A stretch of 64,000 nt of DNA, taken from the NCBI GenBank assembly GCA_965178125.1, contig OZ237750.1, forward strand, positions 62,001-126,000. Reading direction: 5' to 3'. The translations under genes were made by a program, and so were the position numbers. The stretch comes from Bilabrum cf. latius (taxonomy: Eukaryota). Shown one piece after another: positions 1-63,835 of this stretch (its first letter is position 1; every line of letters begins with the position of its first letter). The notes beneath the pieces are model-generated. The model did no database searches and was not told the DNA's origin. It saw only the letters and a list, made by a program, of their open reading frames with translations.

Positions 1-2036
1 CATCTCCTGATTCTGCGCCACCCCTGAGCTCATCTCGCAGCCCGACCAGCTCCGGCGCCGTCAGCAGCAGCAGGGAGAGCATGTCCACCATGAGGTTTAC
101 GAACCTTCGCTCAAACTTCGACGGAGAAGAACTTCGGCGCCCGTCTCTGGTCGTTGCATCGGTAACATCAGTTGACGTAGCCTAGGCGCTGGCTGTGACG
201 AGCGTTGCACCCGGGCTATCCTCGCTTGCACCCGCGTCGCGACCGTCTGCGCCGCGTAGTAGCCTGGCTAGCGTGACATACGTGGCTCTCGAATCGAGCA
301 AGTCGCACAGGTGCCTCAAAATCTTGGCTCCTCGCGTCTCTCGCAGCCTTTCCCTGGTCCTTAACTGCTCGAGCACGCTGCGAAGAAGCCTGCCACGGAA
401 GGCGGCCGGGTCCACCTGGCACATGGCCCCGAGCACTTCGAGGTGCGAGCCCAGCTCCCCCTCAGAAATGCTCTCGTTGGACACATTGGTCAGCAGAGGC
501 AAAGAAACGGAGTCAACCGCAGACATGACGTGCCCTGGGTACAGCTCCAGCAGCAGCAGCAACCAGGCCAGCGACCACGCCCGGCAAAGCTTGCTGTCCG
601 AAGACACGTACTTGGTGACCATCTCAACCAGCATGCGGATATCGGTGGACTGAAGACGGCCCCCACCTGAAGGATCCGCGTCTTCGTTCTCGTCGCTATC
701 CGCTGCTTGGTCTACGTTCCCGGCAGATGCAGCTGCCGTGGCAGCACCTGCGGACGCAGCGGCCGCACCGCTTGCAGCCGCCCCTTTCGCGGTACCTTTG
801 CCCGAGCTACTCCCGCCTTCTATACCACCCGGCTGACCGGCACTACTCTCGCCCAAGGCACCGCCGGTACTCACCGTCATGCTAGCCCCACTAGCTCCAG
901 CAGCAACCCCGCCGGTGGGCCGGCCGTCGCCTTCAGACATGAGTCGTGCGAGCCCCATGAGCACCCTGTTCACCCCCTGGGCCTCCTCCTGCACAGCTGC
1001 GTCCTCATCCGAGGCAGCCAGCAGCACGGCCTTCACAGTGGAGGGAAGCATGCGAGCCGCGCCCCTGCCGCACCTCTCTGTCACCAGCCTGGTCCACCGC
1101 AGTGCAACCCTCCGCGGATATGTCGGTCCGGACTCTACCTGCTGCACCAGCTTGGCCACCACTGCAGGGGCGTTGATGCCTCGGAGCAGCTCGTCGGGTG
1201 CGAGTGTCTCCACGATCGCGTAGAACCGCTCAAGCGCCTGCGCAGCAGCATCGCTGACCTCTGGCGCGCGGGTGCTTGTTGCGAGCAGTTCCAGGAGCCG
1301 ATCCACAAATTCAGATAAGAAAACCACCATGTCGATCCCGGGCACGTTATCCAGTGCCTGCAGCCACCACACCATGAGCAGGGACAGGTCCTTGGACGTG
1401 CTCTGGCACACCTACAGCAGCACGGGGAGAAACCCAGCCACGTCGAAATCCTCCCCGGCCTGGTACACCACCTCCCGCAGCAGCTCGTTCAGTCGCTGGG
1501 CCGCCCCCACGACGCGCAAGTCATCGTCCTGGTGCAATCTAGCCACCGCTACGAAGAGGATCCGTACGAGGACTGGGTCCGTGGCCATGGCGCTCCTCGA
1601 GGTCTTGCACAGCTCGAATAGAGCCTCCACCCCCTACAGCCTGAGCTCGGGCTCCCGCGCGCCTACCACCTCCATGGTCGCCCGGAGCATCTCTGCCACA
1701 TGCGGCTCCAGCTATGCCTGGGTGAGGACCCTGGCGAGCTCCTTGATGACTGCCATGGCTCCCTGCAATGAGGTGAGCAGCACGGGATAGACTCACGCTT
1801 TGTGGACCAGCAGATAGTGCAGTTAATACGATTTTGACGCAGTACAAGCTCACCATTATTGCTAGTAGGTCCTATTGTCCCATCTATAGATCCGTAAATA
1901 CTCGAATGACATCTGCAGCGCCTTGCTTGTTCTCGATAAGCAAGCCTCTAACGATGTGTCCGATTGCCGTTGCGCCTCTTGATCGCTCCGTGGCATCTCT
2001 GCCCCGTAAACGACGCAATTCCTGCACAATATTCAT
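1..2036 (-). CDS. VAC14: VAC14 HEAT-repeat scaffold of the PIKfyve/Fab1 complex; runs off the window start; needs TAG read-through
   Basis: ATG 2036; probable intron 1853-1763 (GTGAG...CAG; an alternative donor at ~1796 is possible). In-frame TAGs at 1884, 1872, 1712, 1634, 1412, 182. Motifs ELRL*GVEALFELCK, FDVAGFLPVLL*VCQ...WLQALDNVPGIDM and FVNLMVDMLSLLLLTAPELVGLRDEL resemble VAC14 (RYYACEALYN, FDLVSFIPLLRERI...VPDINL, ILLTSTELFQLR). Confidence 0.88.
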
Positions 2037-2393
2037 CGAAATGTGTTGCCAAATAAAATACTGACGGAGTTCATGCCATGAAGACATTCGCAGCAGTCTC
2101 AGTGCAGCTTACTGTTTCAGGAATCAACGACTATCCTCCCCGTGCGCTACTGGAGCCAGCTGACTGCTAACCAGATGATGCCATTGATGGAATTGATAGT
2201 ACTGATGCCAAATGACAGCGCCAACCGACTCAAATACACTTTTTGTTGCAGTTGCAGATCGCGTCCTAGAACCATCACGCTACAATTGTCAAATCGGATT
2301 TTGCGGTGTTTGAACTGGGCGGTGGAAGGCAACAAACCGCCCATCTTCGTGCTTACTTATCCAAATACCATGAATATCGGAATAAGCAACATT

Positions 2394-3474: not shown

Positions 3475-3518
<44 letters not shown>

Positions 3519-4024: not shown

Positions 4025-7000
4025 TCAAATCCTGCCTCGCCTACTCTTGGTGCTCCCAGTGCTCCTCCCGGACGACCCTCTCGTCAGCTGGCCCGTCCTC
4101 AAGCCACTCCCCGGTCTCGAGGACAGCAGCTGCGCACCCCCTGCGATGGCGGCGCGGTTGGCGCGTCGACCCAGGCCCAGTCCCACCGCCCGGGAGCCAG
4201 CTGCCGCATGCCCGCCCGGCCTCCCTGCACCGCCCCCAGACCGGGTCGGCACGGGGCCTGCCTGCGTGCCTGGGCCCCCATCACCACGCGGACTGCTGCT
4301 GCCTCTACCCCCCCTGTGAGGAGCTCCATCACCGGACTGCCTTGCGCCGCCAGGACTGCCCCCATCATCTGGCGCCTCCTCCTCCTCGCCCGAGCCCTCC
4401 TCGTTGTCCTTGCCCTCGCCAGCACCATCGCCATCCACGCCCACTAGCAAGGGCCGAGCACCGCCCCGTCCAGCCACCATGGGTGATACTGCCGGCGATG
4501 GTCCATTGGAGCCGCGCAGCTGCATACCGGCAGGCAAGGCTACTGGACGGGGCCGCTGGCTACCTGCTGCTGGCGATGAGCCCGGGGATACGATAGGCGT
4601 GGCCTACCCATCACCGGCGAGACCTGAGCTGGGGCCAATCCCATTTGCATCTGTGCTCGCGCGTGCAGAGGGTGGCGCGCCGTCGCTCACGCGATGCTCC
4701 TGCAGTGCATTGCTAGGTATGGGCTTGCCACCAGAGCGCAGCCGCATTCGGAGCGACGCACTGCTCGCCCGGTCCTGCAGCAGTTGCAGCTGCTCCTGCC
4801 TGAGAATGCCCGGCCTAGCCAGCCCTTTGGCTGCCACAAGCCCAAGGGCTAGGGCATGGCTCCCGCGGCCAGCCCGATGACCCCCCTGCCAGTCCGCTCG
4901 CTTGACGGATGCTGCTGCTGCTGCTACTGTTTGTCCCTTGCCGAGCTTTACGTCGCCCTGCACGCACTTGAGGGCCCCTTGCACCGCTGTCACTAGACCC
5001 ATCACGCCTGCGTCCCAGGACTCTCCGCCCAGCAGTGCCTTGGCCGGCAGGAGTCGGGCCGCATGAATCACCTCGTCTCTGCGGTAGTTCCACCCTGGCG
5101 CCACGTGCGACCCCGGCGTTCTGATGCTCACCCGCTCGATCGTCTGGATGGCGTGGAGGACGGCGCCGGACACTGTGGTCGCTCGAGCGTGGCGGTCCTG
5201 GGCCATTGCAGCAATCGCCTCGATCACGGCACTCGCCGCTGCCGAGGCTCGGAGGTTCCCCACGGTCTCGCTGCCTCCTTGCGCCCGCACCTGCGGCATC
5301 ATGGCTAGCAGCGCCCCTTCGAGCGCCTCGTGGATGCCGTGCTCCACCTCGGGCTGGTGCTGAGCCAGGCGGCTGGCGGCAGCGATCGGCCCCGTCGCGT
5401 GCTCGGTTAATCCGATCCTGCCAGGACCCAAACCTCCCTGCCTGGCCAGCTGTATCAGCTCTCGGAGGAGCGCCTAGGCCGATGCTTGAGACGAATACGG
5501 GGTGTGGTAGGCTGCAAGTCTGCCAGCGACCGGTGGGGGCTTCCGCACGATTGAATCGGACCGCTGTACCCCACCGGGTGATTGCAAGATCACCTGGGCG
5601 TTCATCAGTGCGGCTCGAAGCTCCTTGCCTATCACATCTGGCAAGGCCTCTTCCTGCAAAGCTGCCCGGGGGGTACTGGCCGCTGGTGCTAGCGGCAGGG
5701 CGGCGAGCGCCGCAGCCACCTGCTTGAGAGCTGTTGCTGAGGAAATCGACAGGTCGGTAGTGGGCCCTTGATCACCTTCAGCGTCGGATTGCTCCTCCAA
5801 CAGGCTGAGCAACTCGTCCGAATCGAGATCTAGGTCTACAGCCGGCAGCCTAACCTTGCCTGCCTCCCTCCATGGCAGCTCCCCACTCCTAGTGGCTGAT
5901 GCCGCCCGTTCCTCAAGGCCTCCCTCCTGTGGTGGAATAGAAGCGCCCTTCCCAACGGATGGATCAAGGTGGATAGGCAGGTGCTGGCAGCTGGCGCTGC
6001 TGCTGGCCCCATCTCCTACGATTTCTCCCGCTTGCTCGTGGCCTAGGGTCCTGTACAGGATCACAAATTCGGGCAGGAGCTGCTCCGGGTGGAAAAAGGC
6101 GAACTCGCCCCTGCCCTGGCTGTAAGCCACTGGAGCCTGCCGCACCGCCTCTTCTCTCCCGTGCCGCCGCACTTCCTGCTGGCACGCTTGCGACACGCGC
6201 TTCAGCTCCTCTGCTGTAAAGTCGGGCAGCTGCTCCCCACCAAGTGCACCGCTAGGATCGCCCCCGTCGTCAGCAGGTTTGCCTTCCAATCGAGCCTTCC
6301 ATTCCTAACCAGGCCCAGCATGCACCACCCCGGGTATTATGGAGCGGCATAGCACTGCGACTCGTATGGCGTCGCCAGGGGGTGAGATGGAGAGGTTCTG
6401 CTGCAACTAGTGGTGCTGATCGTCCACTGTGCTTGGTCTACCACTGCTGTCGGCTGCATGATGTGCCGCGGGGTGCACGGCCGACAGCAGCGGTGGCATC
6501 GGACCGAATCTTCCTGCTCCTGCTCCTGCTCCTGTTCCTGCCTCGCGAGCTGCGAAAGCGTGCGTCTATGCGTCCCTCCGAGCCTCCCGCTCCAGCACGT
6601 GGGCCCGCTGGCCCAGTGCCTTCAGCGCCGCCTCTCGCCGGCTCGTCGCCCGATTGCCCGCCTTGGTTCCCGCCGGTGCATTCGTGCGCATCCCTGGATG
6701 GGCCCAATCTAGGGCTCCAGCTGGGGGCCAAAAGCTTGAGCTGGGAGCACCTTGCAGTGCATTGCGGGTGGTGCCGTCGCTTGTCTCGGCGCCATCTGCT
6801 GCATCGCTTCGCAGCGCCATGCCTCGCTCGCTCTCGGGAGTCGAGTACCGGCTGGCGCGGATCCAGGGAACACCATACTAATTGCATTGCAGCGCACGTG
6901 CAGCGGCCGCTCCTGCGTTCACGGCAGCCTCCGCCCACCCCGAGAGGTGACCAGCAGAGGCGCCAAGCCACGCACCAGCCGATGTCGCTGCATCTGTCTT

Positions 7001-7664
7001 GCCGAGTCCCTCGCCTGTCTCGAAATGAATCGCCCCGAGCCTCGCAGCCGCCTCCTGCATGCTTCCGCTCGTTGCTCCTGTCTCTGCGCCCTAGCCAACC
7101 GAGTGGAGGCTCTTCGCATCCCTTGCGAGGGAAGAGGCGGTCGATGGAGAGGATGAGCCTGAGGGCGAGGATGTCCGTCCTCCGAATCCTGCAGTCTGTC
7201 TCGCCTCGTGAGTCACTCGAGCCTTGAACACGCTGTTTGCTACTCCTAAAAGCGCATCGCCGGCGTCATCCCCACTGTCCATCTTGCCTGCATCCTGAGA
7301 TTCGCCGGCTTTTTCCACTGAAAGCGGGCAGCAAGGCCCAAAGCCACGGACCATAAGGGCCGGCAGCACGCTCGGGTGTGGGTGCACAAATACACCCCTG
7401 ACTGATCCTGGCGGGAGGCCCTGGGACCTCTGTTGGAACGCCGCAAGCAGGCCTGGGTTGTGCAGGCGCAACACGCCAGACACCGCGAAGCGACCAAATT
7501 GAGTTCTCGCTGGACCAGAAGCATTGAAGAACCCTGGGCGCACGTTGCTCATTGCTGCAGTTTCACACCTATGAAACTGCCCCAGGCTTCGTGGGAGCCA
7601 CTGCAGTCTAAGGCTGCCGCAGGACTCTGCGGCGAGATGCTAAGACATCGTTTCTAAAGCATGC
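4025..7664 (-). CDS. ~1,200-aa uncharacterised protein with a PARP/ADP-ribosyltransferase-fold-like domain split by low-complexity inserts; 5' exon unresolved
   Basis: ORF pieces 7091-7552, 6878-7060, 6566-6820, 5474-6289, 4604-5431, 4025-4537 share one frame, joined at TAGs, and end in TGA 4025-4027. Segments VLRLHNPGLLAAFQQR, IRVAVLCRSIIPG and GEFAFFHPEQLLPEFVILYR resemble PARP-fold strands (LRRC9-type). CAG acceptor just upstream of 7664. Confidence 0.6.
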
Positions 7665-8370: not shown

Positions 8371-11300
8371 TCACGATATCTACCTCACCGCCCGCTACAT
8401 TGCATCCACCACAAAATCTCCTGCCCGTGCCGCGAGGATCTGCACATTGGTATCAAGCAGCCACCTGCGGATGCGTTCAGCTGCCCCTGGGTTCTTCTTA
8501 GCGTGGGACAGCAAATCTGCAATACGCCCCATCACAGCCGAAATTGGAGTGATCTATCCATCTCCCGCGCCTGCTGTTGGCTTTATCGTGAACGATCTCA
8601 GCGCCACAACGAGCGCAACTACGTGCATCTCGGCAGGACTGCTGTCGGGAAACTCCAGCAGGGTGGCCGTGCCGTGCGTCTCAGCGGCCAGGTGGATCAG
8701 GTTCAACCGAGCTAGAGCAGCCACCAGACTGGCCTTGGTGTATTCTGCTATAGGGTCGTTGGACTCTTCCTCAAACATCCAGACGCTTCCAAGCCGGACA
8801 GCAGCGCGTAGTCCGATGCGAGAGGTGCGCGAGTCGTTGTGTCCTGCCATGCGTGCCAGCTGCACCAGGACCTCGCGCTCTGATGGATCTCCAAGATCTT
8901 CAAGTCGCTATCGCTCCTTCAAAAGAAAAGGTAATGCCTTGGTCGCGCTTGCAACGTCATCAATTGCACCATGAGCTGCAGCTGGTGCGGCCACGCCGGC
9001 TTTTGGAGCATCGCTGGTACTGGCTCCATCAATCGCTAGACCTGCGGCTCCTATTACCTTCGCGCTCGAGGCTCGAACGATGGATGTCTGCACAACCCTA
9101 TTGGGCTCCTGAAAGGGGGTTGTCAGGTTCGGCGGTGGTCGCGAACCAATAACGACACCACGGGATGCGTAGACCCGTGCAGATGCACATGCACCCGCTA
9201 CATTACCTACAACGATAGCACTGCGCTAGCTGACAGCTCTGATGAAAGCTTCGAGTGCTCCACCGGCCGGACTGGATCGTGATGGCAAACCGCAGGTCCA
9301 TTGCAGGTCATCAGGTATATTATCGAAAGAAGCGAGCTTGTCGGCTTCCACGACCTTTCCAAGGCGCCGAAGAGGCAGGCCATTCTCCTTCAATACCGCC
9401 TTCGCGCGCCCACGCAAGACCTTGAACGTTTCATGCGACCGATCGTCGCTCTTGTTCCCGGCAGTATCAGGTTGCGGCTGCTCTTTATCAGTCAAGACAT
9501 CCGCATTCAGATCCTTCAGCCCAGCAGCGCATTTAAAGAGAGCGTCCCGATCCGACATTGATTCGAGCACTTCCTTGATGACCATCTTATCCTACTCTGC
9601 TGAGGCCTCCTGACGTTTTTGTCCGGCAGACATCAGGCAGTCGGGATCGAGCCTGGGCACGCTGCCTTGCTTCTACTTGTCTCGACGTCTCGCCACATCA
9701 GCAGCATCCGGCGGTATCATGCACGACAGCAATGGCATGTCGCCATAATACCATGCAGGGCAAGACACTATGAGAACGTGGCTGAAGCCAGATTCAGGTG
9801 ACTGTGCAAGCCCGAACGCGATTGAGCCGGCTCCGCGTTCAGCAACGAGTGGCACTACAGATCCACCATGCACGCGGAGCTTTGACTCCGACCAGGCCTG
9901 TAACGCGTCCGATACCATAGTTTGGCTACGTAATTGCTTCACAGAGCCAAGTGGCCACTCTAACGGAGCATCAAGCTCGCCGGAGACGACAGAGTGTGAA
10001 CTTTGCGCGTCTACTGCAAAGACTCTAGGCATCATATTGCCAGTTTTGCTCATCTGTTCGATCCAGAAAAAGTCTGAAATCAGCGAGCGGTGCAGATCTA
10101 GCAAGATCTTGCCATGCCGTCTGACCACATGTAGTTCGACATCGGAGGGAAGCTCATGAGAAACAGGTTCCTGTGTCTTCTTTACTGGCTTTCGCACTGA
10201 CACAGGTGACACGTAGACACTGCCGATAGCCTCGAGCTCATCCGCAGTCTCTTCAATTTGCTAATTAGCCAGCCAAGTGGCTTCCTAGCGAACTAGGCCA
10301 TCCCTTTCCATTCCAAACACGAAGTCAAACTCCCGAAGCGAATGCTCTACCACGTGGAGGCAGTGCTTTTTCACGTCTCGAGTCTTGAGCCAAAATGACT
10401 GACCGATGGACTCTATCACAGCTCTAACCGACGATTTTGTTTTGAGGCTGTGAAGTGTGTTTCCTCTATTCATAGATCCCATCACGATAGTCTTCTGCCC
10501 CACTGCTAACATGGGCACCCCGAGCACACGGATAGTCTCCTGGCCGTCGCGCCCAGGCACATCGACCAATGCAAAAGGGGGAATACGTGCACCGACAACA
10601 GCTTGGTACCCCCAAGCCATTGCACTCGCTTCCTATTTCAGAGCCTTGGCTGCCATCACGCTGCTGCCATACCTGGAAGTAGTGCAACCACTAACCTTCA
10701 GGAATAGGCCTCGCTCCGTATCAATTAGTTTGGTAGATCCGCTGCTGCTAGAGCCTTCAGCTGGACCCCCCTGCTTTATACGGATGGAAGAATCGGCAAA
10801 GCTACGTCTGCCGTACAGCACGTCCGCAATCTCTTCCGCTGATCGCTGGACGCTCGCCTCAAAGTCTAGTTCCGTAGATGCGATGCTGGCAGATGCGGTA
10901 CAGGCAGATGTGGCACTAGGGGTTGCGCTAGTAGCACTAGCAGCTGCACCACTGGCGCCTTCATTGATATTATTACCAGCACCGCTGGGTTGTTCAAGCC
11001 AGCGATGCCCCTAGCTGATGGCGGCCGCGGTCTCGTCTGCCTCGGCCGTGGGAGGCCACTTGATTTGGCCGCGTGGTACAGTATCAGGCATTGCAGTAGC
11101 GACGCTCTACAGCTAAAGAGCTCGCCCTGGAGTGTCGAGACTCCATGTCGACGACTATGCACGGCTTCTAACTAAAGTGGCTGCTGTATCACCGGCTCCT
11201 GCCCGCTGGTCGTCGACTCCAGCCCTCGTGCCCCGCAAGACCGATAGCACGTCATCAATGGAAGTCGCACCGAGGGGTCCACCAGAAGGTCTATCATCTG

Positions 11301-14300
11301 CTCCAATGTACGATTCAACACGTTTCCGTGACTTCTTGGGACTGATGACGACATCCACAGCGGTACAGACCGACGCACCAGGAGGCACCTCCGCCTGCAG
11401 CACATCTGCAAGGGGCACTGCTTCGGTCGACTGATCGTCTCTTTCGACCAGCACACGCCCGTCGGAGCTGAGTCGAAGCTAAATTCGTTCGATCTGCTGG
11501 ATCTCGCCAAGGTCCGAATGTGGCTTGATTGACACAGCGAGGCAACCCGGGGTACCAGAGAAACGAATCACAAACGCCGGCCCATCTGTATTTTGAAGCA
11601 TTTCGCTTGCCGCTTCATGGGTCGCAAATGGGACGAAAGCTCCTTCAGGGAGATCGAAGATGCCGTCAATTCGCATGACTCGCTGCAGAGTCTTCTCAAG
11701 CCCCCGTATTTTAAGATGGCATCGGTCGTGCTCAAGCGTATGTGCTCGCGCTTCTTTCTTTGGCGGCGACCTCACCCCAGTGGATGCTGCCACTGCAAAT
11801 GCGTCAGCGTCTATTCCATTCCCGATGAATTCCCGCAACTGATCCGCGGCTCTCTCATGCTAGGCTGTGCCTGAATTCCGGATCTTCCAGTGCCGCAAGT
11901 GGCGGCCTCCCACAATATCAGCGCAAGCATCCAGGGTGGCATTCAGGACAAAGCTGTCAAGTAGGTGCTTGTCAAGTGGCACATAAGGTGCACCCATTGA
12001 TTGGATGGGGTGGCGAGGCGGGCGTTCGACCGCCACCTTACCGACAGATTTCATCTCGTTGTCATCTGCCAGCTGCTGCTGCACCATGGCCTTGCGCCAC
12101 ACGTGTCCGAAGAGGGTGCGGCACTGTTGAATGTGCCTCCAAATCGCCAAGAGACCGTACTGAACAGCATCCAGCCCCCCAATGTAGTATGTTTGCACAG
12201 GCTACTCCCTTAGAGGGACTGCACAGGTAGGAACGCGAGCGATTGTCCACTTGTCGACCTCAGCGGCACGCGAATCCAGCAGACCACGGCCATCTGAGCG
12301 TGAACCCCAGATGTCTGCACTCCGAACCTCACAGACTGCAGCAGCAAAGTCGAGATCGGCCAATTGGAGCATGAACGCATCCTTCTGCTTCTCATCTAGA
12401 GTCTCAAGTCGCCTGCAAATCGCAGCAGGGAGCCTGCTGGAGTCAGTCGGCGCGTCAGGCTCCGATGCACCTGCGGCGGCCAAAACAGCCGCATCATCCC
12501 CTCCAAGCAATCGAGGGTGTATGAAGCGAAAATCGTCGTCCGTTGAAATATCTGCAAATTCTACACCTGAAGTCCCGTGCCGAGTAGCTGTGGCCGCAGC
12601 CAGGGTGCTGCTCTCTTTGCCCCCATGGCCGGGTTTTGGATCCCCGCCAGCTGCAGCAGCTTCAGGAATCGGGCTTGCTTTGCCGAGTTGGTCGCTAGCT
12701 GCGACTGCTACACCAGTCGTAGTCGCTGCTTGCCTAAATCGATCCAACAAGCGTCTCGGCATGAGCCCACAGACAACGTGCCGCACATGGTCTGGTTTCA
12801 GCAAGCAGACCGGAGGTCTCTCTGCGGCGAGTAGTGTCCCGGTTCCTGCCGTGTAAAGAACGCAGGTGCCTTCAGGCCTTGGACGAGACTCTCCACTCTA
12901 AATCAGGCCCATAAGCAGCTTAATGCCCGGGTGGTCGATGGGGTCTTCAAGATCGAGACCGTTGGTCTGGGCAAGCTGAAGGTCGAGCCCGAGCGTGACC
13001 ATCGTCTTTTCAGTGCTCAAACTCGAATGATCGGTGCGTTCTACTCGGTGTCTTGCACGATACAATAGAGGACGGTATCCTCTCAATCGATCAGGCTATG
13101 AGCTCGCCCTTGTGCTCCCTTCCGGTGACCTCCACGTGTCTCTGGCACGCCTTACATCTGCAGTAGACAGGTGAGCGTCGAGCCCATCGATAAGAACAAG
13201 TACATTCTTCCAGCGTTCGAGCTCCTATGCAACCGTATCTAAACTGTCGCAGTTCAAAATACGGGAGTATCTCACGAGCCATTCCCGCTCGTGCACCGTG
13301 TGCACCTCGTGAGTGCCTTGTAGTCGCACGATGTGCCTGAGAATGCCGGCACACACGCATGCCTTCAGTCTACGAATCAGGGCCCGCTCCATCTTACTCC
13401 AAAGGGTTGCATGCGCGCGGGCTCGTTGCACTCTCCCGTGGACTACCTACATGGGAGACCGGATGTGCTGCGCTCCGCCTGCTTGTGTTGCCAACCGCCA
13501 CCCCTCTAGCTCCCAGGCCTCCATAGCATCACCAATGGGCAGCTCTTCAATGGATGTCGCAGCAAGGATGTCACCGACAGGCACAAAAAAGACGCCCCCC
13601 GTGAATCTATCGCGCCAGCGAGCATGCCTACCAACGGCCATCACAACAGAAGTCTTGCCGGACCTTGGCCATCCTAGCAGGCCGATGCACTGAGCGGATC
13701 GCTTGCTAACATCTTCGGGGTCCAGCACGTCCATGATTTGTGTGAGACCGACGCGGTTGTGCGCCAGAAGCGACTGCTCGACCTCAGTGGTAGCGCTCGC
13801 TGGATCGCTTGGACTACCGCTGGTGTGCTGCAATGGGGAGGGCACGAACCACGGCATCCGATCGAGATTTGCGGAGGAAACGCTGGCGTGCCCTGACGAT
13901 TCGCTGCTCCCTGCTCCTGACGAAGGGCCGGGGCCTGAGAGATCCTGGATGAACGCAACTGCTGGGTCTCGCCGAGCGACCGGCTCGCAAAAGACCATAT
14001 CGCCAACAGGATCGCCAGTCTCTGGATCGAACGCCTCCGTGGGTGGTCGAGCTGTGCGGGTCATGGAGGATAAGCCCCTCATCGGATACGAGCTCGCGAC
14101 TGCGATGCTTGACTCAGCCACCCGCCGTGATAGACTGCCGCCTGCGCCTCCTGATGGCCGTCTCTTGTCTGATTGCACCGTTGCTTCCGTTTGTCGGAGC
14201 TCTGCATCACCTATACCGTACTATTCGATCCGCGAGGGGTCTGACCCTGCACTCGCGGCTGCCACTGCCGGCCCACCTGAATTCGACCGCATTACCACTA

Positions 14301-49370: not shown

Positions 49371-49427
<57 letters not shown>

Positions 49428-49732: not shown

Positions 49733-52700
49733 TCACGAGCGATCGCCTCTCGTTGATGAGCCCAAGTCGCGCAGGAGGTGGTTCTCCACGAACCCAGCGA
49801 ACCTCCTAGCATACGGCTCCGGGTCAACCGCCGAGATGTCGTTGCTGCGTCCCACCCTGACCACCATCTTCACCGTGCGCTCCACCTGCTTCGAGCTGTC
49901 GTATCGCTGCAGGGGATCGATCAGTCCCACCTGGGCCAGAGCGCTCCAGCGGGGCTCGGTCCCGGGAGTCTGCGGTGCACCACAGCCCGCGCTGCCGGCC
50001 GCCTCATTTGTCCTCAAGATGGGGGGCACCCCGCTTGTCACTCCATCCGCGGGAAGGCAGCAGGGAACAAGGGACAGACCGGAGAACAGTGACATGCGGG
50101 GTGGCACCGCAGCGGCCACAGGGCACGTGTACAGGTTGGAGCGAGCGTGGGCGATGACAGACTCGCTGCTGAGGCTCTGACTACTACCGCCGCCGTGAAA
50201 GCCCCCGGGCCCCACAGCCGCAGCACCTGCCCCTCTCCCTCTCCTCCCTACGATCCCACCTCCCCCGCGCGGCCCCCTGCCGCCGGCACTACCGCTCCCA
50301 GGCGAGGCCGACAGAGACCCCGAGGCCTCCCTCCTCACCGCGAGCCTAGCGATCCGCTTCTGCTCCTTCACGGGGAGCAGCCGAGGAGCCGCCGGGTCGA
50401 GCACCCACGCTGAGGGGTCCACCACGGCTCCGGAACCGGCCACGGCGCCGCGCATCGCTAGCTGGCCTCGCTGGAACGCCCTCCACACCTGCGCGGCATC
50501 GCGGCCCAGAGACAGCAGGCTGTGCACGTCGACTGGCGGGAGGGTGCAGTCTCCCTGGGACTGCCGCTCCTGCTCCTGCTCCTGCTCCTGCTGTTGCTCT
50601 TGCCCTTCTTCCTGCGCCTGCTGATCACCCTATGCCTCGCGCCGATGTTCCCTGGCGGCCCGCTCCCTCGCCCTGCGGCTCCCATGGAATGGCAGCGTCC
50701 TGCCCACCTGCAGCAGCAGCGAATAGTCCATCAGCTGGTGGTCCCTCAGCATGGCTGCGTCGGCCTGCAGCTGCCGCGCCAGCCGACCCGCGTACCCGTC
50801 GGGAGTCGCCAGGCCCTCAGGAAATGCGGAACGGAAAGCCGAGTCCCGCAGCAGCCCCAGCCCAGCCACCCTCTTCGTCTCCGTGCCCCTGCACCGCTCC
50901 CCTGTCGCAGCCACGATGGCCCGCGCCGCGCCCCTGTCCGCCGCTCGCAGCGATCCCCCCCTCCCCGCGGTGGACCCCTTCAGGTCGAAGCGGCAGCTGG
51001 GTCGCGGGAGCGCGGGGGCGGGATGCACGTTGGCCATGAGCACCGCGTGCACGCTGGCGCTACCCGGGATCTGCACCGTGAAGGCCGCCAGGAACCTCAC
51101 GATCAGCGAGTCGGGGTGCTCCCCAAGATGCCTCACATAGGAGGGCATCAATCGGAGCAGTTCCTGCAGCTCCGAGTCCTCGATGGTCTTGAGGAGCAGC
51201 ATACCGTCCCTGGAGCGGCAGAAGAAGCTCGCCGATGCCGCTTCGCTGAAGTGCGCCTGCAGCTGCCCAGTGGCCACAAGGTCCGGATCAAGCTCCTGCG
51301 CGAGATCCAGGCCACGGAGCCCGCACGCTGCCCTGAGACGCGCGAACGCGCTGTCCTCGTGCGACACCACCTGCAGGGTGCGGCTCCCCGACGACTGCCT
51401 GCCGCCGCCCGACCCCCCGAAGCCGCTGCCATCCAGCGCGAAGCTGCTCGTCCGGCCTCGCATGCTGCCTCCGGCGGCAGCACCCCGGTCTGCCGATGCA
51501 CCGGGCCCGCGGTGCCCCCTCTGCTCCCACGGCGCAGGGCCCATCATGCTGAGGCCCTCATCGCCACCCCCTTCGCTGCCCCGCGGGCCCACGCCGCCCG
51601 CAACCGTAACACTCGCGCTCAGCAGGCCGGCAGTCGCGGTCGAAATCCCGTCCCCTAGTCCCGCGTGGTCGGCACCTGCCCCAGCCCCGGGACTCGCAAA
51701 CGCGGTGGTCGTGACCCCGCACCTCGCGGTGAGGGGGAAGCTTGTTCCCTGGGACGCCTCCCTCCAGGCCCGCTGCACCGCGTGCCCGGCGATGGCTTCC
51801 AGCCTCTCCCGCACCGCCCGCCTGCAGTAGCCCCCTCGCTGGGGGACAGACCGCTCCACAGAGGAGCGCTGCCTTCTGGCGTCCGCGATTTGCCCGTCCG
51901 GGCCATACGCAGTCAGCGAGTCGTCGGGCACGGCGTCCTCAGGGCCTGCCTTCGGCCGAGGGGGGAACGGTGGCGGAGAAGAGGCGAGCTGCGGGAGGAG
52001 TCGCCTGGGGGAGGAAGGAAGAGGGATGCCTTGCTGTGCTTGCTGCCCTCGGCTGCTGCTGCTGCTCGAGCTGCTGCTGCTGGAAGCGCTCTTGCTACTC
52101 TGTGCGCTTGGGCCTCGCTCGAGCACTGCTGGAGACGATGCCCCCGTGGACACAGGGGTCTGCCCCCCCTCCTCCTCCCCGCCCTTGTCACCCCCCTCAT
52201 GGGGTCGTAAAGCCCCGGCGCCGCCCTAGATCGGCCCCTGCCCACCATCCGCGCCCGCAGCAGAGGCATCTGCCCCGCCTACCGATCCCGCGACTTGCCC
52301 GCTCGATTCCCTCTAAGGCTCGCAGGACAGCGAGCTCGTGGCGTCCCTCAGCATCGCGGGCAGCGCCGAGGCAGGTAGACCCGCCCTTGCAGCCGCGGCG
52401 GCGATTTCTAGCCGCCTCGCTTCAGCGTGCGGGCCCACGCCCCACTCGTGCTCGCTCTCTAGCACCAGATTGGACACGGCCGCCATGATGATGAGTCCCA
52501 TCTCTCTTCGCAAAGAGGCCCCCAGGTCCCACCCGTAGCCCTTGTTCTCCACGGCGCCGCTCATGGCATCCCCGATGGCAGCTGCCTTGACCTCTTCGTC
52601 TTCACGCCGCTGCTGCGCAGCTTCCTGCTCCTCGGGATCGGCCGCTACGGCAGCGCGGCGACTCGCGCGTCTCTGGTGCTTGCGAGCAAGCGACTCCAGC

Positions 52701-55700
52701 ACGCGGTCCATGGGCGCGCCTGTTGCCCCCTGGACTGCGCTCGGCTGCACCGAGCTGACGCCGGGATCGGCAGTGGTCTCTGACCCCTTCAATGCAGCAG
52801 GCATGTCCGCCGCTGCCGGGGGGCCCGCCCCTGGCAGCGACACGCCCGACGATGCAGCTAGCCGCCGAGCCTTGTATACCTCCATCGGCGTAGGAAACAA
52901 GCTGACTCCACGCTTGTGCCTCGGCCGATCCGCTTTCACACGGACTGGCGCGCCGGTATCCGCAGCGGCCCCTGCTGCGCCTGCAGCCTCCCACTAGCCT
53001 GCAGCAGCGACATCATCGCCCGCGCCCATCCGGGCACCTTTGCTTCCCGGCAGCTGCGGCAGTGGCCGGGCCTGGCCGCCGGGGTCCTGCGTGCGACCGT
53101 CCATGCGCGTTCTGGAGCCGCGCGAGGCATCCGACACAGACCCGGCCGATCTTGCCCTCCGCCGGATTGCCCCTTGGCGCATCCCGCTGCTGCTGGCACT
53201 GCTGGTGCTGGTGGAGCTGATGAACCCAGAGCCATCCTCATCCCACTCGCTGTCAGCCCCCGACTCGAGCGCCAGGGCCCTCCGCAGCCGCCTGCCGCTT
53301 CCCCCGTCCAGATGCTGCGCGCTTGGGGCCCTCTTCCGCAGGGCCTGCCTCACTCGCGACCGCTGCTTCTTGCCAGCGCCGCCCTCCCAAAACGCCTCCG
53401 TTTTCGGAGCCCCGCTTGTTCCCTGGGCACCCCTTCCGCTATCGCTGTCACGTCCCGACTGCTGCCCCAGGCCGCTGTCGTCTCCGCCCCCGTGCATCAT
53501 CCAGGCCTGCATCTCCGCCTTGGAGGACTCCGTGAGGGCGAGGGGCAGGGGCATGGCGTGGCTGGCCGTGCGAGACCTCCGGCGTTGGGCTTGGGCGGAT
53601 CTGATGCCGCCCCTGGGAGAGTTCCTCGAGGAGTTTCTAGAGGTGCGCCGCACCCCTGCTACTGCGGGGAGGTCCATCTGGGATGATGAGGCCACGCTGG
53701 ACCCGCAATCCGTGTCGGTGCGGGAATCGAACCTGCGACCCCTCATCGCCGCCTGCCCACCGAGTCCCGGTCGGCCCGGCACACCCTCGTTGTACACTGG
53801 CAGCTGCAGCAGACCGGATGACGAGTCAGTGTCCGTGTCTTCTTCCGACACGGATGAGTAGTCGACCTTGCGGCCGTTGTGCGTGCCGTCGTACTTGCCT
53901 CGCTGCTGCTGCGTCTGCTGGCCACGTTTCCCCGCAATGCTTCTTTCCTCACGTGTTCCCTGGCCGGAGACTCCCACCAGGGCACTGCCGAGCTGCTGCA
54001 GAGGCAGCCACCTGGACACTGCGCCCACCATCCTCTTGGCCCTGCGCACTCGGCCCCTCGCCCTGGATGCCACCAGCTGCTTGCGGCTCGCGTGCGACGG
54101 GAGCCTGAACCCAGCCCCGCTGACTCCTCGAGACGCTGATGCCGCTGTACCCATCCGGGTCCTCTGCCGGAGCAGCCGCCCTGCGCTGGACTCGGAGCCA
54201 TTTACGGTTGCGACCGCCGCCATGCGGGCCTGGCCCCCGTCCCCGTCCTCATCCTCGTCCCAGGACCCGCACGCGCCCCCGCAGCAGCACAGCTGCTCTG
54301 TGTCTTCCGACTCCATCATCAGCGGGGCTTCCGCACCGCCAATCCCGGCCCAGTACGCGAAATCTCCAGCAAAACGAAGCATACCAAGCGAAGCGGGCGG
54401 CTCGAACTCGTCACCATCGTCACTGCCAACTCCTCCCCCACCTAACTTTCCGGCACTACGATTTGTAAGCTGGGACTCACCGGTCCCGTGGCCCAGCAGC
54501 GGTGCCTGCAGTGCATTGCCGCTCCCAGCGCCCCCGCTCCGGCTGCAGCAGCCGCCGGTGGTTCCGCAGGCACAGCACAGCGCGGCACACCCAGCCTGCC
54601 AGCACCAGGCATCGCACGCCGCCCGGCACCGCTTTCCCGAGGTGGGGTCCTCTGAATCGCTCTGGAGCACCTCCACGGCGTCGAACCAGTCATCTGGAAT
54701 CGATAATGTCTCCAGGGGGGCTTCCTCGTAGGCAGCACCGCCCAGCAAACCGGAGAAGGGTGAGCTGGCTGGGCACTGCGACGTGCCATGGTAGCCAGCA
54801 CCGCCAGCCACGCCGACCAGGTCCCCACTGCCATCTTCGGCGTAAAGCGCCCCGGCACGCCTCCAGCCAGATCCATTGCGCGGCGCCGACCCTTCGGTTC
54901 CGCCGTGGTCGTCCGCCAGATCCGATCCGTAGCCCCTCCGCAGGCCTTCTCGCCGAACCTTCTCCACGGTTCGCTAGCTGGCCCGTACCCTCTTCTGTTC
55001 CTTGCCCCACTTCGCCAGCCTCTGCCTGAGCCCCCAGTCGCTGCCGATCCACAGCACGCGCACGTAGAAGCAGCTGCAGCACCGCAGCAGCGCCCCCCGC
55101 AGGATGGCCTCCAGGATCCGCATGGCCCCTGGCTCCAGGAGCCGCACGATCGACAGCACCACCGTCTGTGTCGACAGGCAGACCGCGTCAATGACCGTGA
55201 AGGCCAGGTATTTATCCGTTGGGTCCACCCTGGCATGCACCGTGGGGATGGCCCACATGATGACGAATGCCAGCACGTACACCGAGTGCCTCCTGACCAG
55301 CCTCTCCCTCAGCCTCCACGAGTACGTGGTGCCCACTGTTCTCTGGTACACGGCGTAGCCCAGCGAGAGCACAGCCAAGAGGAGCGTCAAGTAGAGGGGG
55401 ATCTCGAAAAGCAGCTGGTGCTCTGGGTCGCCCAGCACCCAGCAGTCATGGTCCCTCGACTGCTTGGGCGCCTGCCTCAGCACGAGTATGGCCGTCGTGA
55501 CGGTGGCTGTTCCCCACGCAGCCATGTGGTAGTATCGGTGGTATCCTCTCGTGTTGCGCAGGGGGGAGTGGAGGATGGCCACAAGCTCCGCGATCCAGCA
55601 CGCGTTCCAGATCACCGACGAGACGGCGAAGAATTGGCCCCATAGCGACGCGGACCAGCACTTGTCCGGGATGATGTGGAAGCTGTCCCGCTCGTCCGTC

Positions 55701-55981
55701 GCCCCTGCAAACCATGCTGCAGCCGCCAAGAAGTACCGAAACGTAAACATCGCTTCACACACCGTGATGAACAGTATCACCTGTGACGTGTGCGAGCTCC
55801 ACACCCTGGAAGCGTGCTGGCCTCCGCAGAATACAACTAGTACGGCTGCTGCACCCACTAATGACATCAATCCACCAATGAAGTACACTGGCGCTAGCGT
55901 GCCGTAGAAATCCTCTCCATCGTCCGTCCCACCACCTGTTGCATTTCCCAGAACTGCGCGCAGCCCAATTGCTGCTGCCAT
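49733..55981 (-). CDS. GPCR-PIPK fusion: N-terminal 7TM receptor and C-terminal phosphatidylinositol-phosphate kinase (~2,080 aa)
   Basis: Five ORF pieces in one frame joined at TAGs 54974, 52994, 52313, 52226, 50630; TGA 49733. 7TM: GQFFAVSSVIWNACW, YYHMAAWG, DCWV. PIPK: SFFCRSRDGMLLLKT, FDLKGS, MDYSLL, GLIDPLQRY, ISAVDPEPYARRF. Confidence 0.9.
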
Positions 55982-56515
55982 GACGACACCACACTCAACT
56001 CAGCACAGGAAAGATATAAAAACTGAGAACTTCTCTATTACAATATTCTCATCTAGACGGATTATCAAACTTGCTGACAGATTGAATCTCCGTCACGAGG
56101 TATATCGGATCGATCCGTGCAAAACAGCACGTGACAAAGTGGCAGGAAAAAGCACGGTCCAGTTGTTGTCAGGATCTGGGAGAGAGACAGAGGGTTAAGA
56201 CCTTATTATTGCTCGTATCATGTAAGTAATATTGACTGTCTAGATAGGATGACGCCACATCTTGCCAGTATAAGTCTGTTTGAGCTGAACTGGACGTCAC
56301 GTTTCGCTGCTAACCAACGTTCCAGCTAATCGCTGTCGACGATGCATGATCCAGGCAGTGTTTGGACCCAGATTTCATGAAGATACATGTTGCATTTTTC
56401 TGGTAGGGGATATAGCGTACTGTTTCGTTGGTTTTTGCTGCTTTGTGTCACTCAATGCGCAGTGCGTGGGATCATTCAAGCTCCCGACAGCTGCATGCCG
56501 CACGAGGTACGTTGA

Positions 56516-59500
56516 ATGTCTGGACTTGGAGATATTCTAGCAGGATCCGAAGCTCCGCCTGGAGACGGATCCGCACCTGATGGCGGATATAGAGGCTCTC
56601 AGATGGGCCCGGTAGGCTCACCAAAAGATGGCGTTCCTGAATCGAACGGCGGCATCGCTGCTCCCGGCATCGTTGGCATGGGCGGCATCAGCAGCGAAGG
56701 AGCTGGCATGGGGGGAACACCCGTGAGGCTTGGTCGGGGTCCGGACCTAGGCCTTGGCATCGGCGGTGCGCCCGGCTTCCCAGACCTAGGGCCAGTCGCG
56801 GGTGGCGCCGCGGCGCAGTCGAACGGAACCGGCGCCGCCCCCCCTGCCCGCGACGCCAGCGCAGCCGCCGTGGGCGGCCCTCCCGGCCTGCGGACCCCTT
56901 CCCCCGGCAAAGCCGGCCGCATGGGCAGCCGCCTGGGCCTGACCCCCGGGTCGGGCTCAAGGTCCACGGCCCGCATCTCCGCAAGGCTGTCCCAGCCGGT
57001 GGAAGGCGTCGAGCTGAGCCCGTTTTTGTTCCTCCGAGACTCCACGGGGCTCCTCATCAACGCCCAGGACGAGCGGGTCACATTCCGCTGGTAGCGGTCT
57101 ACCACCCACAGGGCCTGCGCATTCAGCGGGTGCAGGTACCTGAGCTCGGCACCCGCGGAACAGGCGGCGAAATGGCCCGCCGCAGTGCAATGCGCCACCA
57201 TGGCCAAGGCGGGGGCCTCCCCGGAGAGGTCTTTGTACTGCAGCCCTGAGTGCTACCAGCAGGCGTGGTCTGGCCACAGGCAGTACCTGGAGCTAGCAAA
57301 GTCCCCTGACGGCACGATGGACTTTTCGCGGGCAAAGTACACGCCACTTTCGCTGCCCGGGGGCGAGGAGGCCAAGCGGGAGGCGCCCGGGGACAGCGCG
57401 GCCGCGGCCAGCGGCGCCAGCACGAGCGCAAGCTCCGGCGCAGGCGGCGGCAGCGGGAGCGCGTCCAGCGCCAAATCGGAAGATGAAGATGAGAGCGAGC
57501 TGACTGCGAGCGAGGCGGCATTCGCGGCTGCAGAGGCCCTGTACAGCGGGCCGGCACCACCCCTGCAGCCGGGCCTGATGCACCCGCCGCCCTCGGCGGC
57601 AGCTGGTGGTCGGGAGACGGGAGGCAAGGCCAAGGAGGCGGCTGCCGCTGCTGCCGCTGCCCACTCTTCGAAGTCGAAGGCCGAATGGATCGACCTAGGG
57701 GAGGCGAGGACGTACGTGCCGAAGGCCGAAGACGTGTGGCACAGGATTAGGCTGCTGGTGGAAGCGGACATTGGCGGGACCGATGGCTTGCTCACCGAGA
57801 CCGCAATCACTCACCCCGTGCTGCCCAGACCCCCGCTGGCCGCTCACCGAACGTTCGTTCCGCTCACCAGGGACCCCAGGACGGGGACGGCTCCCCGCGC
57901 AGACGTGCCCCCCGCGCAGGTGGTGGCCAAAGAGGGCGACAGGCGGCACCCACACACGGTGCGTGTGGTCAGCTACAACACGCTGGCGGAGATCTATGCC
58001 AACCAGGGCGTGTACCCCTACTGCCCCAACTGGGCCTTGTCCTGGCAGTTCAGGAGAGACCTCATCATCCGAGAGCTCCTGCGGCTGGACGCTGACCTCG
58101 TGTGCCTGCAGGAGGTGCAAGCGGACCACTTCCTGAGCATGCTCAACCCGGCCATGAAGGCGGCGGGGTACGACTCGCAGTACAAGCAGAAGACGAGGGA
58201 GTCCATGGGGCTAGAGGGAAAGGTGGACGGGTGCGCGTTCTTCTACAAGGCAGGCAGGTTCAAGCTGCTGGAAAAATACGTCGTGGAGTTCAACGCAGCG
58301 GCCAAGACCGCCTCCGAGGCAGAGGCGAATGAGCTGAGGCGGCAGCAGGCAACGCCGGCCCAGCGGGCCCAGCACATGAAGCGCCTGGACAAGCAGCTTC
58401 ACCGGCTGCTGCGGGACAACGTGGCGCAGGTGGTTGTGCTGCAGATGACAAAGGACGCCCAGGGCAACTCCATCACGGAGCCGTCGGGCGAGCAGCCTCT
58501 GATCTGCGTGGCGAATACCCACCTCTTCTGGGACCCGGAATTCGCAGACGTCAAGCTCTGGCAGACGCAGATGCTGGTGCGTGAGCTGGAGAAGCTGACA
58601 GCCAAGAGGGGGCTGCCGCTGATCCTGTGCGGCGACTTCAACTCCGAGCCCACCTCGGCGGTGCACAAGCTGCTGGCGGGGAACGCCAAGGCGGGCCACA
58701 GGTGCCAGCTGCAGCATGAGGACCTGCCCGCCGACCCACAGGGTATCCTGCCCCGCCAGATGGCGCGGCTCAGCCACGGGCTGCTGCTGCAGTCCGCCTA
58801 CGGGTCGGTGCTGGGAGACGAGCCGCGGTTCACCAACTACACGGAGCAGTACGTCGGCTGCCTGGACTACATCTGGATCAGCGCCGACCGAGCCACGCCC
58901 GTGGCAGTGCTGTCTGTGCCCCACGAGAGTCAGCTGACCGCGACCAGCAGGTCTCCGCTGCCCAACCCGCAGCACCCGTCAGACCACGTCAGTCTCTGCG
59001 CAGACATCGTCATCGGCATGCCGTCCCACGGTCTGGCTCGCAGTGCTCTCCCGGCAGGCGCCATGGGGCCGGGGGCCGCTGGTGGCATCGGCGGACTCAG
59101 CAGGGGTGTTGTGGCGAGCGGCCCAGCGCCAGGGCGGGTCATGCCCGGCGGGCTCGGCACGTTCCGTGGCAACGGGATGCAGCAGCAGCAGCACTCGTCA
59201 CATCAGGGCCAGCAGGGCGGCGTGGGCGTGGGCGTCGGGATGGGCGTGGGAGGCGGCCGGCCCACTCCTGGAGCGGCGGGTCACGGCCAGCTGGGTGGTG
59301 CCGCCGCGTCTGCCGGGTCACGAGCGGCCGCGTCTGGCTTCGGGCCACCCGTGGGACGCATGGGTGTGATGAGTGCGAGCCGAGGCATGCCGGTGGGCGG
59401 GACCGCGGGCGGGCCGGGGATGATGCTGGGAGGCATGCCGGGCGGTGGGCGGGGCGTGGGTGCAGGCGGGCCGGGGATGGGGCGGTTCGGTGGACCCGGC

Positions 59501-59596
59501 ATGGCAGGCAACGGTGCTGGCGGTGTGCCCCGGCAAGGCCAGATGCTCGGTTCATCCCCGTTCGGCGGTGGCGGGGCCAGCGGCGGCGGGTACTGA
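56516..59596 (+). CDS. CCR4: CCR4 deadenylase (EEP family, plant/oomycete-type N-terminus without LRR)
   Basis: PVEGVELSPFLFLRD, FRW*RS (TAG 57092), YCSPECYQQAW; catalytic SYNTLA, LCLQEVQ-type motif, NTHL, CGDFNSEP, LDYIW, PSDH; TGA. Confidence 0.92.
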
Positions 59597-61430: not shown

Positions 61431-62153
61431 GGCTCGTAATTCTCTGTAAATTCGCGATAAATGTGAGTGAGCATTGCTGATGAGTGAAATACAGAAATAC
61501 AGAAATACATTGTTGGGTTAAGTTACCGAGTGAGCATTGCACTGAGCAACATGGTTTAATAACGTGTTAAAAAGTCCAGCGCAACAAAACCAGAAGTGAC
61601 TTATGTTCTATCACTTCCTACACGATGTTTGTCATAGTAGATAGAGACCTACGCTACATGCATGGTGAAGCTAATCGCTCGTATCACCTAGAGCGCAATA
61701 AACACGTACTCCTCTCACACTAACGGCCGTATTACAAGGTAACCAGCACCTTTCGGCGCCAGATAGTTTCATGTCGGCCCCGAAATACGATTCCGTGATA
61801 TTGTACTGCTTTAATCAATATTATTAAATGCCGTAAGCACTCCCGAAAGTCTATGGTGTATTGACTGCCATGCTTTGACCAGGCAGCGTGCATCGGATTC
61901 TACAGACTACTGAACGATTGCCCAGTCGCAGCAGTGGCTGGTACTGAACACGGCTCCCGGTGGGAGTTTATGGAGCGGATGGATACAGTTAGCCTCCTTG
62001 CCTCAGCCAGAGCTGGCGAATGATCGATGGAGCGGGTCATCGGACACTTGAGCCGCTGGGAGCGGGTCACGACCCGTGGTCTCTTCCACTAGTGGCAGCA
62101 GGCTGAGAGGTGCTGGCATTCAGGCCACGAACGAAGCGTCTGCCCCAAACTAG

Positions 62154-63835
62154 TCAACCCATGGCCTCCTCAAGCAGCTTCACGCACTCTTCGTGACCTC
62201 CAAGCCGAGCCGCCTCCAAAGCCGTCACGTCCCCGCCCGCACCACCCACCATGCCCCGAGCCACCAGCGCCCCCGCCAGCTTGCCCAGCCTCAGCCTCCT
62301 GGCCAGCTCCATGGGCCTGCCCTCGCTGGCCGCCGCCCACGCCAGGCCCCTGTCCTGCAGGGCCCGGCCCGCGTGCCTCCACCGCACGACGGCCCTGTGC
62401 CTGGGCGAAGTAGCCAGCGCCATGCCCCGCCTCCAGTCCGACGCCAGCCTAGTGCCGGGATAGTACCTTTGCAGCATGCCGTGGACGATGGCCGCGGCTT
62501 GTGGTCCACTCGTCACACCATCCAGGTCGCGCATGAGCGAGGGCGGCACTCGACTCCCAGAGATCTCTCCAAACCTGAAATCTTCTCCCTCTTTCGGCTT
62601 GGAGGCTTCCTCCCAGGCCTTTGCATCCGTTGTGAGCTCTCGCAATGCCTCCTATGCATCTGCCTCTGGCAAGTACGTCCGGAAGCTCCTGAGAGCTTTC
62701 TCTTGCTATCCGGCGCTGCCCTGCCCACTCTGGGAGGTACTGCAGAAGCCTTGCGATTTTTGGTGGTACCAGTACACAGCTTGGCTCAAATAGGAGATCA
62801 GGGCCTTGGGCGCGTGCGACCCGGCCTGAAGCAGCATGGCCATTGACACTACCTCGGTGGGGTGGTCGCATCGGGTGTCCGCGGGTGTGCGACCGGTGCT
62901 GTTGCGCAGGGATAGGTCGGCCCCGGCATTCAATAGAACTTGCTATACTTTAATGGCTGGGTGCGAATACCAATGCACAAGGCTGGCCTGCCGAGTCTGT
63001 ATGAAGTGCAGCAGGGTCCAGCCTGTGGTAGTTGCTGCGTTCGGGTCTGCCCCTGCTGCAAGCAGCAACTGTGCAATGGGAGCCATTGAATCGTGCGTGC
63101 AGAAGTGCAGGGGGACGGATGTTCCCTGCGATAAGAGTATGTATCGCAGAAGAGACGCATTCAAGATGTCGGTAGCACGCCACTGGCAGAGCCGGTTCAT
63201 GTCATAGACCCAAGTTGCGCACCAAATGTTTTTGCAAATGCAGCACTGCTTACCCAAGCTACGAACGCATGATTTGCTCCAGCGTCCAGAAGCCTCTTAA
63301 CAATGCGTTTACTCATGCTTGCGTAGTCTGGAGCGCCCAGGGTGTTGAAGAGCTCCTGAGACATCGGTCTTGAGAATGGGATCGCGCATGCAAGGCAGTT
63401 GCTGATGGAGGCGTTGGCTCCATGTGACAGTAAAAGTTCCACCATTGGAACATCTGAGTTATAACACGCTATATCAAGCGCTGTCGTGGTTGAAGGACCA
63501 CAATTCCGGCGGCCGGAGCCGGGTGACGTGATGAAGTTCGGATCGGCGCCGGAAGCAAGCAAAACGTTGGCAATCACGTGCTTCTGGTGAGCAACCACAG
63601 CTTGTAGAACCGTGAGCTTGACGTCATTTAAGAACTACGGGAGTCCCGACCACCTCTTAGTCGCCTACAGGGAGCATCCGAGAGCTGCGTACTCGTTGAT
63701 GATCTCCTTGACCTCATCGCTCCTATCGGCCACTGAAGCCTTGATGGAGTCAAGCAGGGCTATTGCCTTTTGCCGATCCTTTATATCCAAATCATCCAAA
63801 CGTCTTGACGCTGGTTTGTTAGAGCGATCGCTCAT
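62154..63835 (-). CDS. Ankyrin-repeat protein
   Basis: Probable exons 63835-63254 and 63125-62154 (intron GTAAGC...CGCAG); start tentative. Repeats LLASGADPN, TALDIAC...LLLSHGAN, LLLAAGADPN...GWTLLH, LLNAGAD...GRTP, TALEAARLGGHEECVKLL. TAGs at 63665, 63635, 62943, 62706, 62652; TGA. Confidence 0.8.

Follow-up and report, generated by a model that had tools for sequence, protein, structure and literature searches.

The 64-kb stretch of DNA analysed here (Bilabrum cf. latius, contig OZ237750.1, positions 62,001 to 126,000; in the following the window) very probably belongs to the nuclear genome of a GC-rich, intron-poor eukaryote in which UAG stands for glutamine, UGA is the main stop codon and UAA a minor one. 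It has 61% G+C across its length, and the GT..AG introns of its compact eukaryotic genes are short and few in number. The results support a code of the UAG-to-glutamine-only type, as in Iotanema and some ciliates, and with it a further case of the rare split between UAG and UAA; formally, we take the assignment to be that of NCBI table 15. Once TAG was read as sense, with TAA and TGA kept as stops, the five longest frames comprised 3249, 2642, 2089, 1348 and 1344 codons; the standard code allowed no more than 1260, and no gain comparable to that with TAG was obtained when TAA or TGA was read as sense. Fifteen frames with together 16,366 codons (terminal stops removed) contained 87 TAG, but no TAA and no TGA, in frame, whereas each of the two off-frames of the same 15 stretches held 118-128 TAG, 41-61 TAA and 274-303 TGA. 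As the frames are bounded by TAA and TGA, the zeros for these two codons arise partly by construction, and the true test is therefore the existence of frames thousands of codons long. TAA and TGA are kept out of the reading frame as expected of stops and TAG is not, which leads to the conclusion that TAG is a sense codon. This agrees with an earlier note, made from the letters of the window, which had proposed TAG, but neither TAA nor TGA, as sense and had seen only TAG in the gaps between neighbouring pieces of open frame.

At least one in-frame TAG was present in 13 of the 15 frames, including the conserved VAC14, WASH, SMC3, ADAT2 and CCR4 as well as a receptor-kinase fusion (GPCR-PIPK); the pattern described in the note therefore stands, although its number of 11 genes does not. 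The same holds for the frame ends, where the majority of TGA was seen correctly but 14 complete 3' ends (12 TGA and two TAA) were found instead of 11 TGA and one TAA. Four motifs interrupted by TAG lie exactly where they had been reported: LLR-TAG-FY in ADAT2 (49114-49116), FRW-TAG-RS in CCR4 (57092-57094), LLAEI-TAG-AGKKL in the WH2 motif of WASH (38979-38981) and FLPVLL-TAG-V in VAC14 (1412-1414). Overall, TAG makes up about 0.5% of all codons and about 11% of the glutamine-type codons, with glutamine at 4.2% of codons, and its density is highest in the genes richest in CAA. The frames run from stop to stop, and 5' leaders may account for a few of the 87; the count excludes one 'TAG' from the 5' end of the SMC3 frame, beyond the transcript contig.

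The residue inserted at UAG was assigned from close relatives, whose proteins were collected by an exhaustive search with WASH, by word searches with two large proteins of the window (a giant protein with NACHT-like modules and G9, a 2641-codon frame), and from cluster mates of the matches. The short-fragment homolog searches led to one match among 8000 scored candidates for the giant protein and to one among 7999 for residues 1-1450 of G9. The relatives' database proteins are fragments (P0122, 95% identity; P0123, 78%; P0181, 96%; P0182, 92%; P0187, 64%), because a gene caller using the standard code stopped at TAG: all five distinct C-terminal ends of the predicted proteins fall just before a TAG (two) or a CAG (three) of the window, and P0187, a homolog of the giant protein, ends exactly at the window TAG 12202-12204. 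Nine TAG sites of the window in WASH and G9 are spanned by relatives at 78-96% identity and show Q at seven, S at one and A at one; for G9, P0181 and P0182 have Q at 33802, 33721 and 33505 and S at 34486. The 78% relative is also represented by a metagenome contig (L001) with a WASH ortholog in one open frame that closes, like the window gene, with the acidic-Trp motif and TGA. At the WASH TAG sites of the window this contig reads CAA, CAA and CAG at three and GCC at 38031, and it has six in-frame TAGs of its own, four in WASH and two in INO1. At the four WASH sites the window has CAG three times and, in a gapped stretch, CCC; of the two INO1 sites, one is Glu in the window and the other falls within an insert that cannot be aligned. 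The window and L001 are syntenic for WASH and INO1, a divergent gene pair (L001 3-2087, minus strand, and 2754-5000, plus strand, against 37938-43018 in the window), the relative's WASH being 66-78% identical. Pooled over the close relatives, glutamine was found in 12 of 16 alignable comparisons of TAG with a sense codon, Ser and Glu in one each, and Leu and Tyr in none; the 12 consist of seven window TAGs facing Q, three TAGs of L001 facing CAG and two further protein ends on CAG. Hence at least two relatives use TAG in frame, and sites with TAG in one genome have CAG or CAA in another. Two of the glutamine codons are CAA, two steps away from TAG, so that a single-step mutational bias does not account for the pattern. 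Therefore, judged by aligned proteins, the close relatives and not the distant homologs decide the residue, and they support glutamine as the probable meaning of UAG, for which the note had given no amino acid.

Seven sequencing runs contain at least half of the sampled words from 37900-47700; four of them belong to one study, which is probably the source of the DNA, and three (X5, X6 and X7) to two other studies. X4, X5, X6 and X7 were compared with the window over 37900-57899. The DNA run X4 gave one contig that is continuous over 38900-49334 and has none of the splice joints, whereas the contigs of X5, X6 and X7 were gene-sized and uneven in depth. All three runs have contigs that skip 40405-40511, the intron of WASH (CT..AC, that is, GT..AG on the minus strand), and those of X5 and X7 also skip 48501-48597 and 48709-48804, the two GT..AG introns of ADAT2. 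Because the introns are skipped, the three runs were taken as spliced RNA. The in-frame TAGs of this region are covered by the listed contig pieces for 14 of 14 sites in X5, 8 of 14 in X7 and 6 of 14 in X6, and no letter of these pieces differs from the window. Across the four runs from three studies, the letters agree over 20 kb except for one difference in one low-depth contig, which is not at a TAG. As the TAGs are unchanged in spliced contigs, their removal by splicing, editing at the consensus level and base-call errors are excluded for 37900-57899; the note had named TAGs that are spliced out, edited or miscalled from CAG as grounds for giving up its proposal, and none of these holds at the level of contigs.

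Several results weigh against the assignment, be it through the residue, the nature of the reads or the stops. The main discordant one comes from P0187 (64% identity), in which M, L and M stand opposite three TAGs of the window, so that glutamine is found in 12 of 19 comparisons, from a few genes only, once this protein is included; we read the three residues as probable ordinary divergence at this distance. Single sites in the closer relatives have S, A, P or E in place of Q. Distant homologs are uninformative or favour other residues: five PDB chains have Y, T, T, Q and D at the ADAT2 site, and of 57 distant WASH matches, 11 have D, nine Q and five E at site 25, while 21 have F and 12 Y at site 57. 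The M, L, M of P0187, the Glu of the window facing a TAG in the INO1 of L001 and the aromatic residues at WASH site 57 would favour another residue for UAG (Leu, Glu, Tyr or Ser; cf. the rhizarian exLh, the ciliate PL0344 and Scotinosphaera), a reading that we regard as highly improbable given the glutamine majority among the close relatives, where Leu and Tyr never and Glu and Ser only once appear, and given the CAA codons, which speak against mutational bias. As to the reads, the run types are automatic guesses ('RNA? (probably DNA)' for X5, 'RNA?' for X6 and X7), the status of these runs as RNA being taken here from the splice joints alone, and contigs are blind to rare edited variants and to transcript ends. 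That the TAGs are never translated at all, being sequencing or assembly errors, parts of pseudogenes, or spliced or edited away, nevertheless deserves practically no credence: nothing was found in its favour, four runs from three studies agree, the spliced contigs retain the TAGs, the relative from an unrelated metagenome record has TAG at other glutamine positions of the same genes, and an error from C to T would also create in-frame TGA and TAA, of which none was seen.

For the stops, the glutamine codons of the window allow an estimate. CAA and CAG occur 142 and 542 times overall, and 44 and 64 times in the giant gene with its 33 TAGs; for a TAA with the same meaning as TAG, the CAA/CAG ratio of each gene predicts 41.7 occurrences in frame. 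As none was seen, TAA is clearly not used the way TAG is. A code in which both UAG and UAA are glutamine (UAR-to-Gln, of the NCBI table 6 type), with TAA scarce only on account of the high GC content, would be in line with the general finding that the two codons share their meaning in nearly all nuclear variants (according to the available parts of PMC5304391 and PMC11687900), and TGA at 12 of 14 frame ends is the look expected of a code with a single stop. However, codons ending in A are not rare in these genes, TAA is absent from all 16,366 codons but present 41-61 times per off-frame, and two frames end in TAA, which makes such a code very unlikely. The two frames are the second NACHT-like frame and G9; the TAA of G9 is followed by TGA eight codons downstream, so that this end is not diagnostic. 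Termination at TAA is therefore likely, on the basis of its absence in frame and of two of 14 frame ends, one of these with the nearby TGA, and this narrow basis is a further point on the opposing side. UGA as stop is indicated by its absence in frame, by 12 of 14 frame ends and by the WASH ortholog in L001, which also ends at TGA. Also to be considered is an ambiguous UAG, glutamine inside genes and stop near some 3' ends, as in Condylostoma or Blastocrithidia. Some frames carry TAG a few codons before TGA, for example the giant gene, which closes with ...DAM-TAG-RAVR-TAG-IS-TGA, and the true end is not readable from DNA, as transcript ends are invisible in contigs. Yet a dedicated stop, TGA or TAA, follows every frame, so that ambiguity is not needed. 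Furthermore, the acidic-Trp end of WASH (DSDSDDSAGGW) lies 3' of the TAG 38031-38033, 31 codons from the end, just as the note had placed it beyond a TAG, and L001, which has GCC at this site, retains it and likewise ends at TGA. The conservation of a C-terminal motif behind the TAG implies that this late codon is read through, and we hold an ambiguous UAG to be unlikely. Finally, no tRNA gene was found in the 64-kb window, which also gave no match to Rfam and does not encode eRF1.

For UAG as glutamine with UAA left as stop, a route can be proposed. A dedicated tRNA-Gln with the anticodon CUA, reachable from tRNA-Gln(CUG) by a single change in the anticodon, would decode UAG; in addition, eRF1 would have lost or weakened its recognition of UAG while keeping that of UAA and UGA. 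Suppressor tRNAs with the anticodon CUA read UAG and not UAA, whereas those with UUA read both (available part of PMC11687900). UAG can thus change alone, and since C34 does not wobble to A, tRNA-Gln(CUA) would leave UAA untouched.

Codes with both UAA and UAG as glutamine are found in many ciliates, ulvophycean green algae, Hexamita, oxymonads and Amoeboaphelidium protococcarum; the window shares with them a stop read as glutamine and TGA left as principal terminator, but differs in having no in-frame TAA against about 42 expected and in two frames that end in TAA. Closer are the codes with UAG alone as glutamine, which, as far as the available parts of PMC5304391 and PMC11687900 go, are those of the fornicate Iotanema spirale and the ciliates Protocruzia tuzeti, Hartmannula sinica and Trochilia petrani. 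The Iotanema/Protocruzia type agrees with the window both in UAG as glutamine with UAA and UGA kept as stops and in the kind of evidence, namely in-frame UAG at glutamine positions of homologs. In contrast to the nanochromosomes of ciliates, the window has 61% GC, is intron-poor and comes from contigs of more than 200 kb, and its main stop is TGA (12 of 14), whereas phyllopharyngeans, at 27-54% GC, use UAA as main stop and UGA least (PMC11687900, available part). Other residues for UAG alone are reported in the same partly available sources: Leu in a rhizarian (exLh) and in phyllopharyngean ciliate metagenome-assembled genomes (MAGs) from TARA, and Ser in Scotinosphaera, while in the ciliate PL0344 UAG is Glu and UAA is Lys (PMC11687900, PMC5304391). 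These codes have the decoupling of UAG from UAA in common with the window, as well as the proposed route by a tRNA with CUA anticodon (PMC11687900, available part), and differ in the residue, since the window gave Gln in 12 of 16 comparisons, Leu in none, and Ser and Glu in one each. UAG as glutamine in a stramenopile or another GC-rich lineage outside the ciliates was not found in the literature, of which subscription journals were mostly outside the scope of our search and supplements not covered.

INO1, which has no TAG, served as taxon marker. It has relatives at 93% and 75% identity, and the best named match is the stramenopile Cafeteria roenbergensis with 57%, among 120 matches listed. 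In a tree of 33 rows, hand-picked from these 120 plus the window, the window and its two relatives sit on a long branch (1.21) that joins Cafeteria roenbergensis with support of only 72/64, which is no placement. The cluster names of ten WASH and INO1 matches also pointed to no named organism close to the window. Amoeboaphelidium, reported to read TAG and TAA as glutamine (PMC6299283, available part), was rejected as source of the window, as its genomes have about 40% GC (PMC10608142, Table 1) and none of its proteins is among the 120 INO1 matches listed. A contig scan with INO1 gave as sole match a bacterial MAG and not the window's lineage: a Bacteroidota chromosome titled Putridiphycobacter sp. 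(L002, 10001-11441), the best segment of which is 62% identical to the window enzyme. That the code is an independent case, as the note had suggested, is probable; we are evenly divided on the wider reading, in which UAG alone changed to glutamine independently in a lineage for which such a code has not been reported, outside ciliates and fornicates and possibly a deep-branching stramenopile. On that reading, the change would be old enough to be common to relatives with WASH proteins only 66-78% identical.

Nuclear codes that split UAG from UAA are known from very few lineages and test ideas on the recapture of stop codons. The background seen here, GC-rich and terminating at TGA, is the opposite of that in the ciliates that account for most such changes, which are AT-rich and terminate at UAA. 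If the origin was indeed independent, the code would have arisen in a GC-rich genome, with UAG as a common and not a vanishing stop, and such an origin would speak against simple codon capture driven by AT pressure. UGA, the leakiest stop, would then have been left with nearly all of termination. Annotation with the standard code truncates most proteins of this genome and of its relatives, as the fragmentary database entries of the latter show. As DNA and apparently RNA runs are public and relatives exist, the tRNA, eRF1 and the timing of the change are open to study.

The genes of the window are given here in order. VAC14 (2..1792, minus strand) is partial, running off the window start, and has four in-frame TAGs, including 1412-1414; it matches the Pfam families Vac14_Fab1_bd and Vac14_Fig4_bd and had no match in PDB. 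An EXPERA-domain protein (2451-3797) was recognised by its Pfam/PDB match. The low-complexity protein frame G3 (4025..7600, minus strand) has seven in-frame TAGs, a TGA end and no Pfam family; its 5' part, 7601-8056, is non-coding in appearance and was excluded. The giant protein (8371..18117, minus strand; TGA end) has three NACHT-like P-loop modules, among them internal duplicates (residues 654-716 and 1053-1116) that are nearly identical. The note had described it as a gene of about 4,030 codons with about 40 TAGs and no TAA; this size has to be revised, as the uninterrupted frame comprises 3248 codons with 33 TAGs, but there is indeed no TAA in it, nor a TGA. The sequence upstream is a tandem array of a 112-bp unit (18447-21533, 27.6 copies, 95% matches), which is open in three frames and easily taken for coding, and for this reason it was not counted as part of the gene. 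It is followed by two arrays of a common 107-bp unit at 21567-22022 (4.3 copies) and 22836-23424 (5.5 copies). A paralogous gene lies nearby, the second NACHT-like frame (24729..27746, minus strand), with ten in-frame TAGs and a TAA end; both genes are located in a stretch of lower GC content (54-58%), and no others in the window reach their TAG density (about 1% of codons) or their CAA/CAG ratios. G9 (29074..36999, minus strand) contains a kinase-like segment and 12 in-frame TAGs and ends with the TAA described above.

WASH (37938..40620, minus strand; Pfam WAHD) consists of a main exon, 37938-40404, the intron 40405-40511 and an upstream exon to about 40620. Its five in-frame TAGs are at 38031, 38979, 39369, 40242 and 40338, and TGA follows the acidic-Trp motif. 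The inositol-1-phosphate synthase gene INO1 (40940..43018, plus strand; TGA end), identified by Pfam and free of TAG, was also the control gene. The large 3' exon of an SMC3-type cohesin subunit (43631..47515, minus strand; Pfam SMC_N and SMC_hinge) has one TAG at 43823-43825 and a TGA end, and an X5 contig covers 43594-47515. The ADAT2/Tad2 deaminase gene (48448..49587, plus strand) comprises the exons 48448-48500, 48598-48708 and 48805-49587 around its two GT..AG introns, with in-frame TAGs at 49114 and 49234 and a TGA end; its joints were seen in X5 and X7, and it matches ADAT2/Tad2 in PDB. GPCR-PIPK (49733..55999, minus strand; Pfam 7tm_2 and PIP5K; TGA end) is a fusion of 2088 codons that joins a secretin-type seven-transmembrane receptor to a PIP5K kinase domain with long low-complexity linkers, and all five of its in-frame TAGs are in X5 contigs. 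The CCR4-type exo/endonuclease gene (56516..59596, plus strand; Pfam Exo_endo_phos) has a single TAG at 57092-57094 and a TGA end, with contigs in X5, X6 and X7. Three further genes on the minus strand, each ending in TGA, code for a coiled-coil repeat protein (60300-61517, two in-frame TAGs) and two ankyrin-repeat proteins (62154-63296 with three, 63197-64000 with two). The names given in the note were well chosen: VAC14, WASH, SMC, the deaminase and the CCR4-type nuclease are backed by Pfam, and ADAT2 by the PDB matches. An all-against-all BLASTP of the window proteins for paralogs at TAG sites led to low-complexity matches only and was uninformative.

A palindromic element, AGATCTAGATCTAG, occurs at 3815-3828, 5826-5839 and 29028-29041. 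Two of these copies lie 15-30 bases 3' of the stops of the EXPERA-domain gene and G9, and the third lies inside another frame. With up to two mismatches, six matches were found against 0.16 expected, and the element may be a 3'-end signal.

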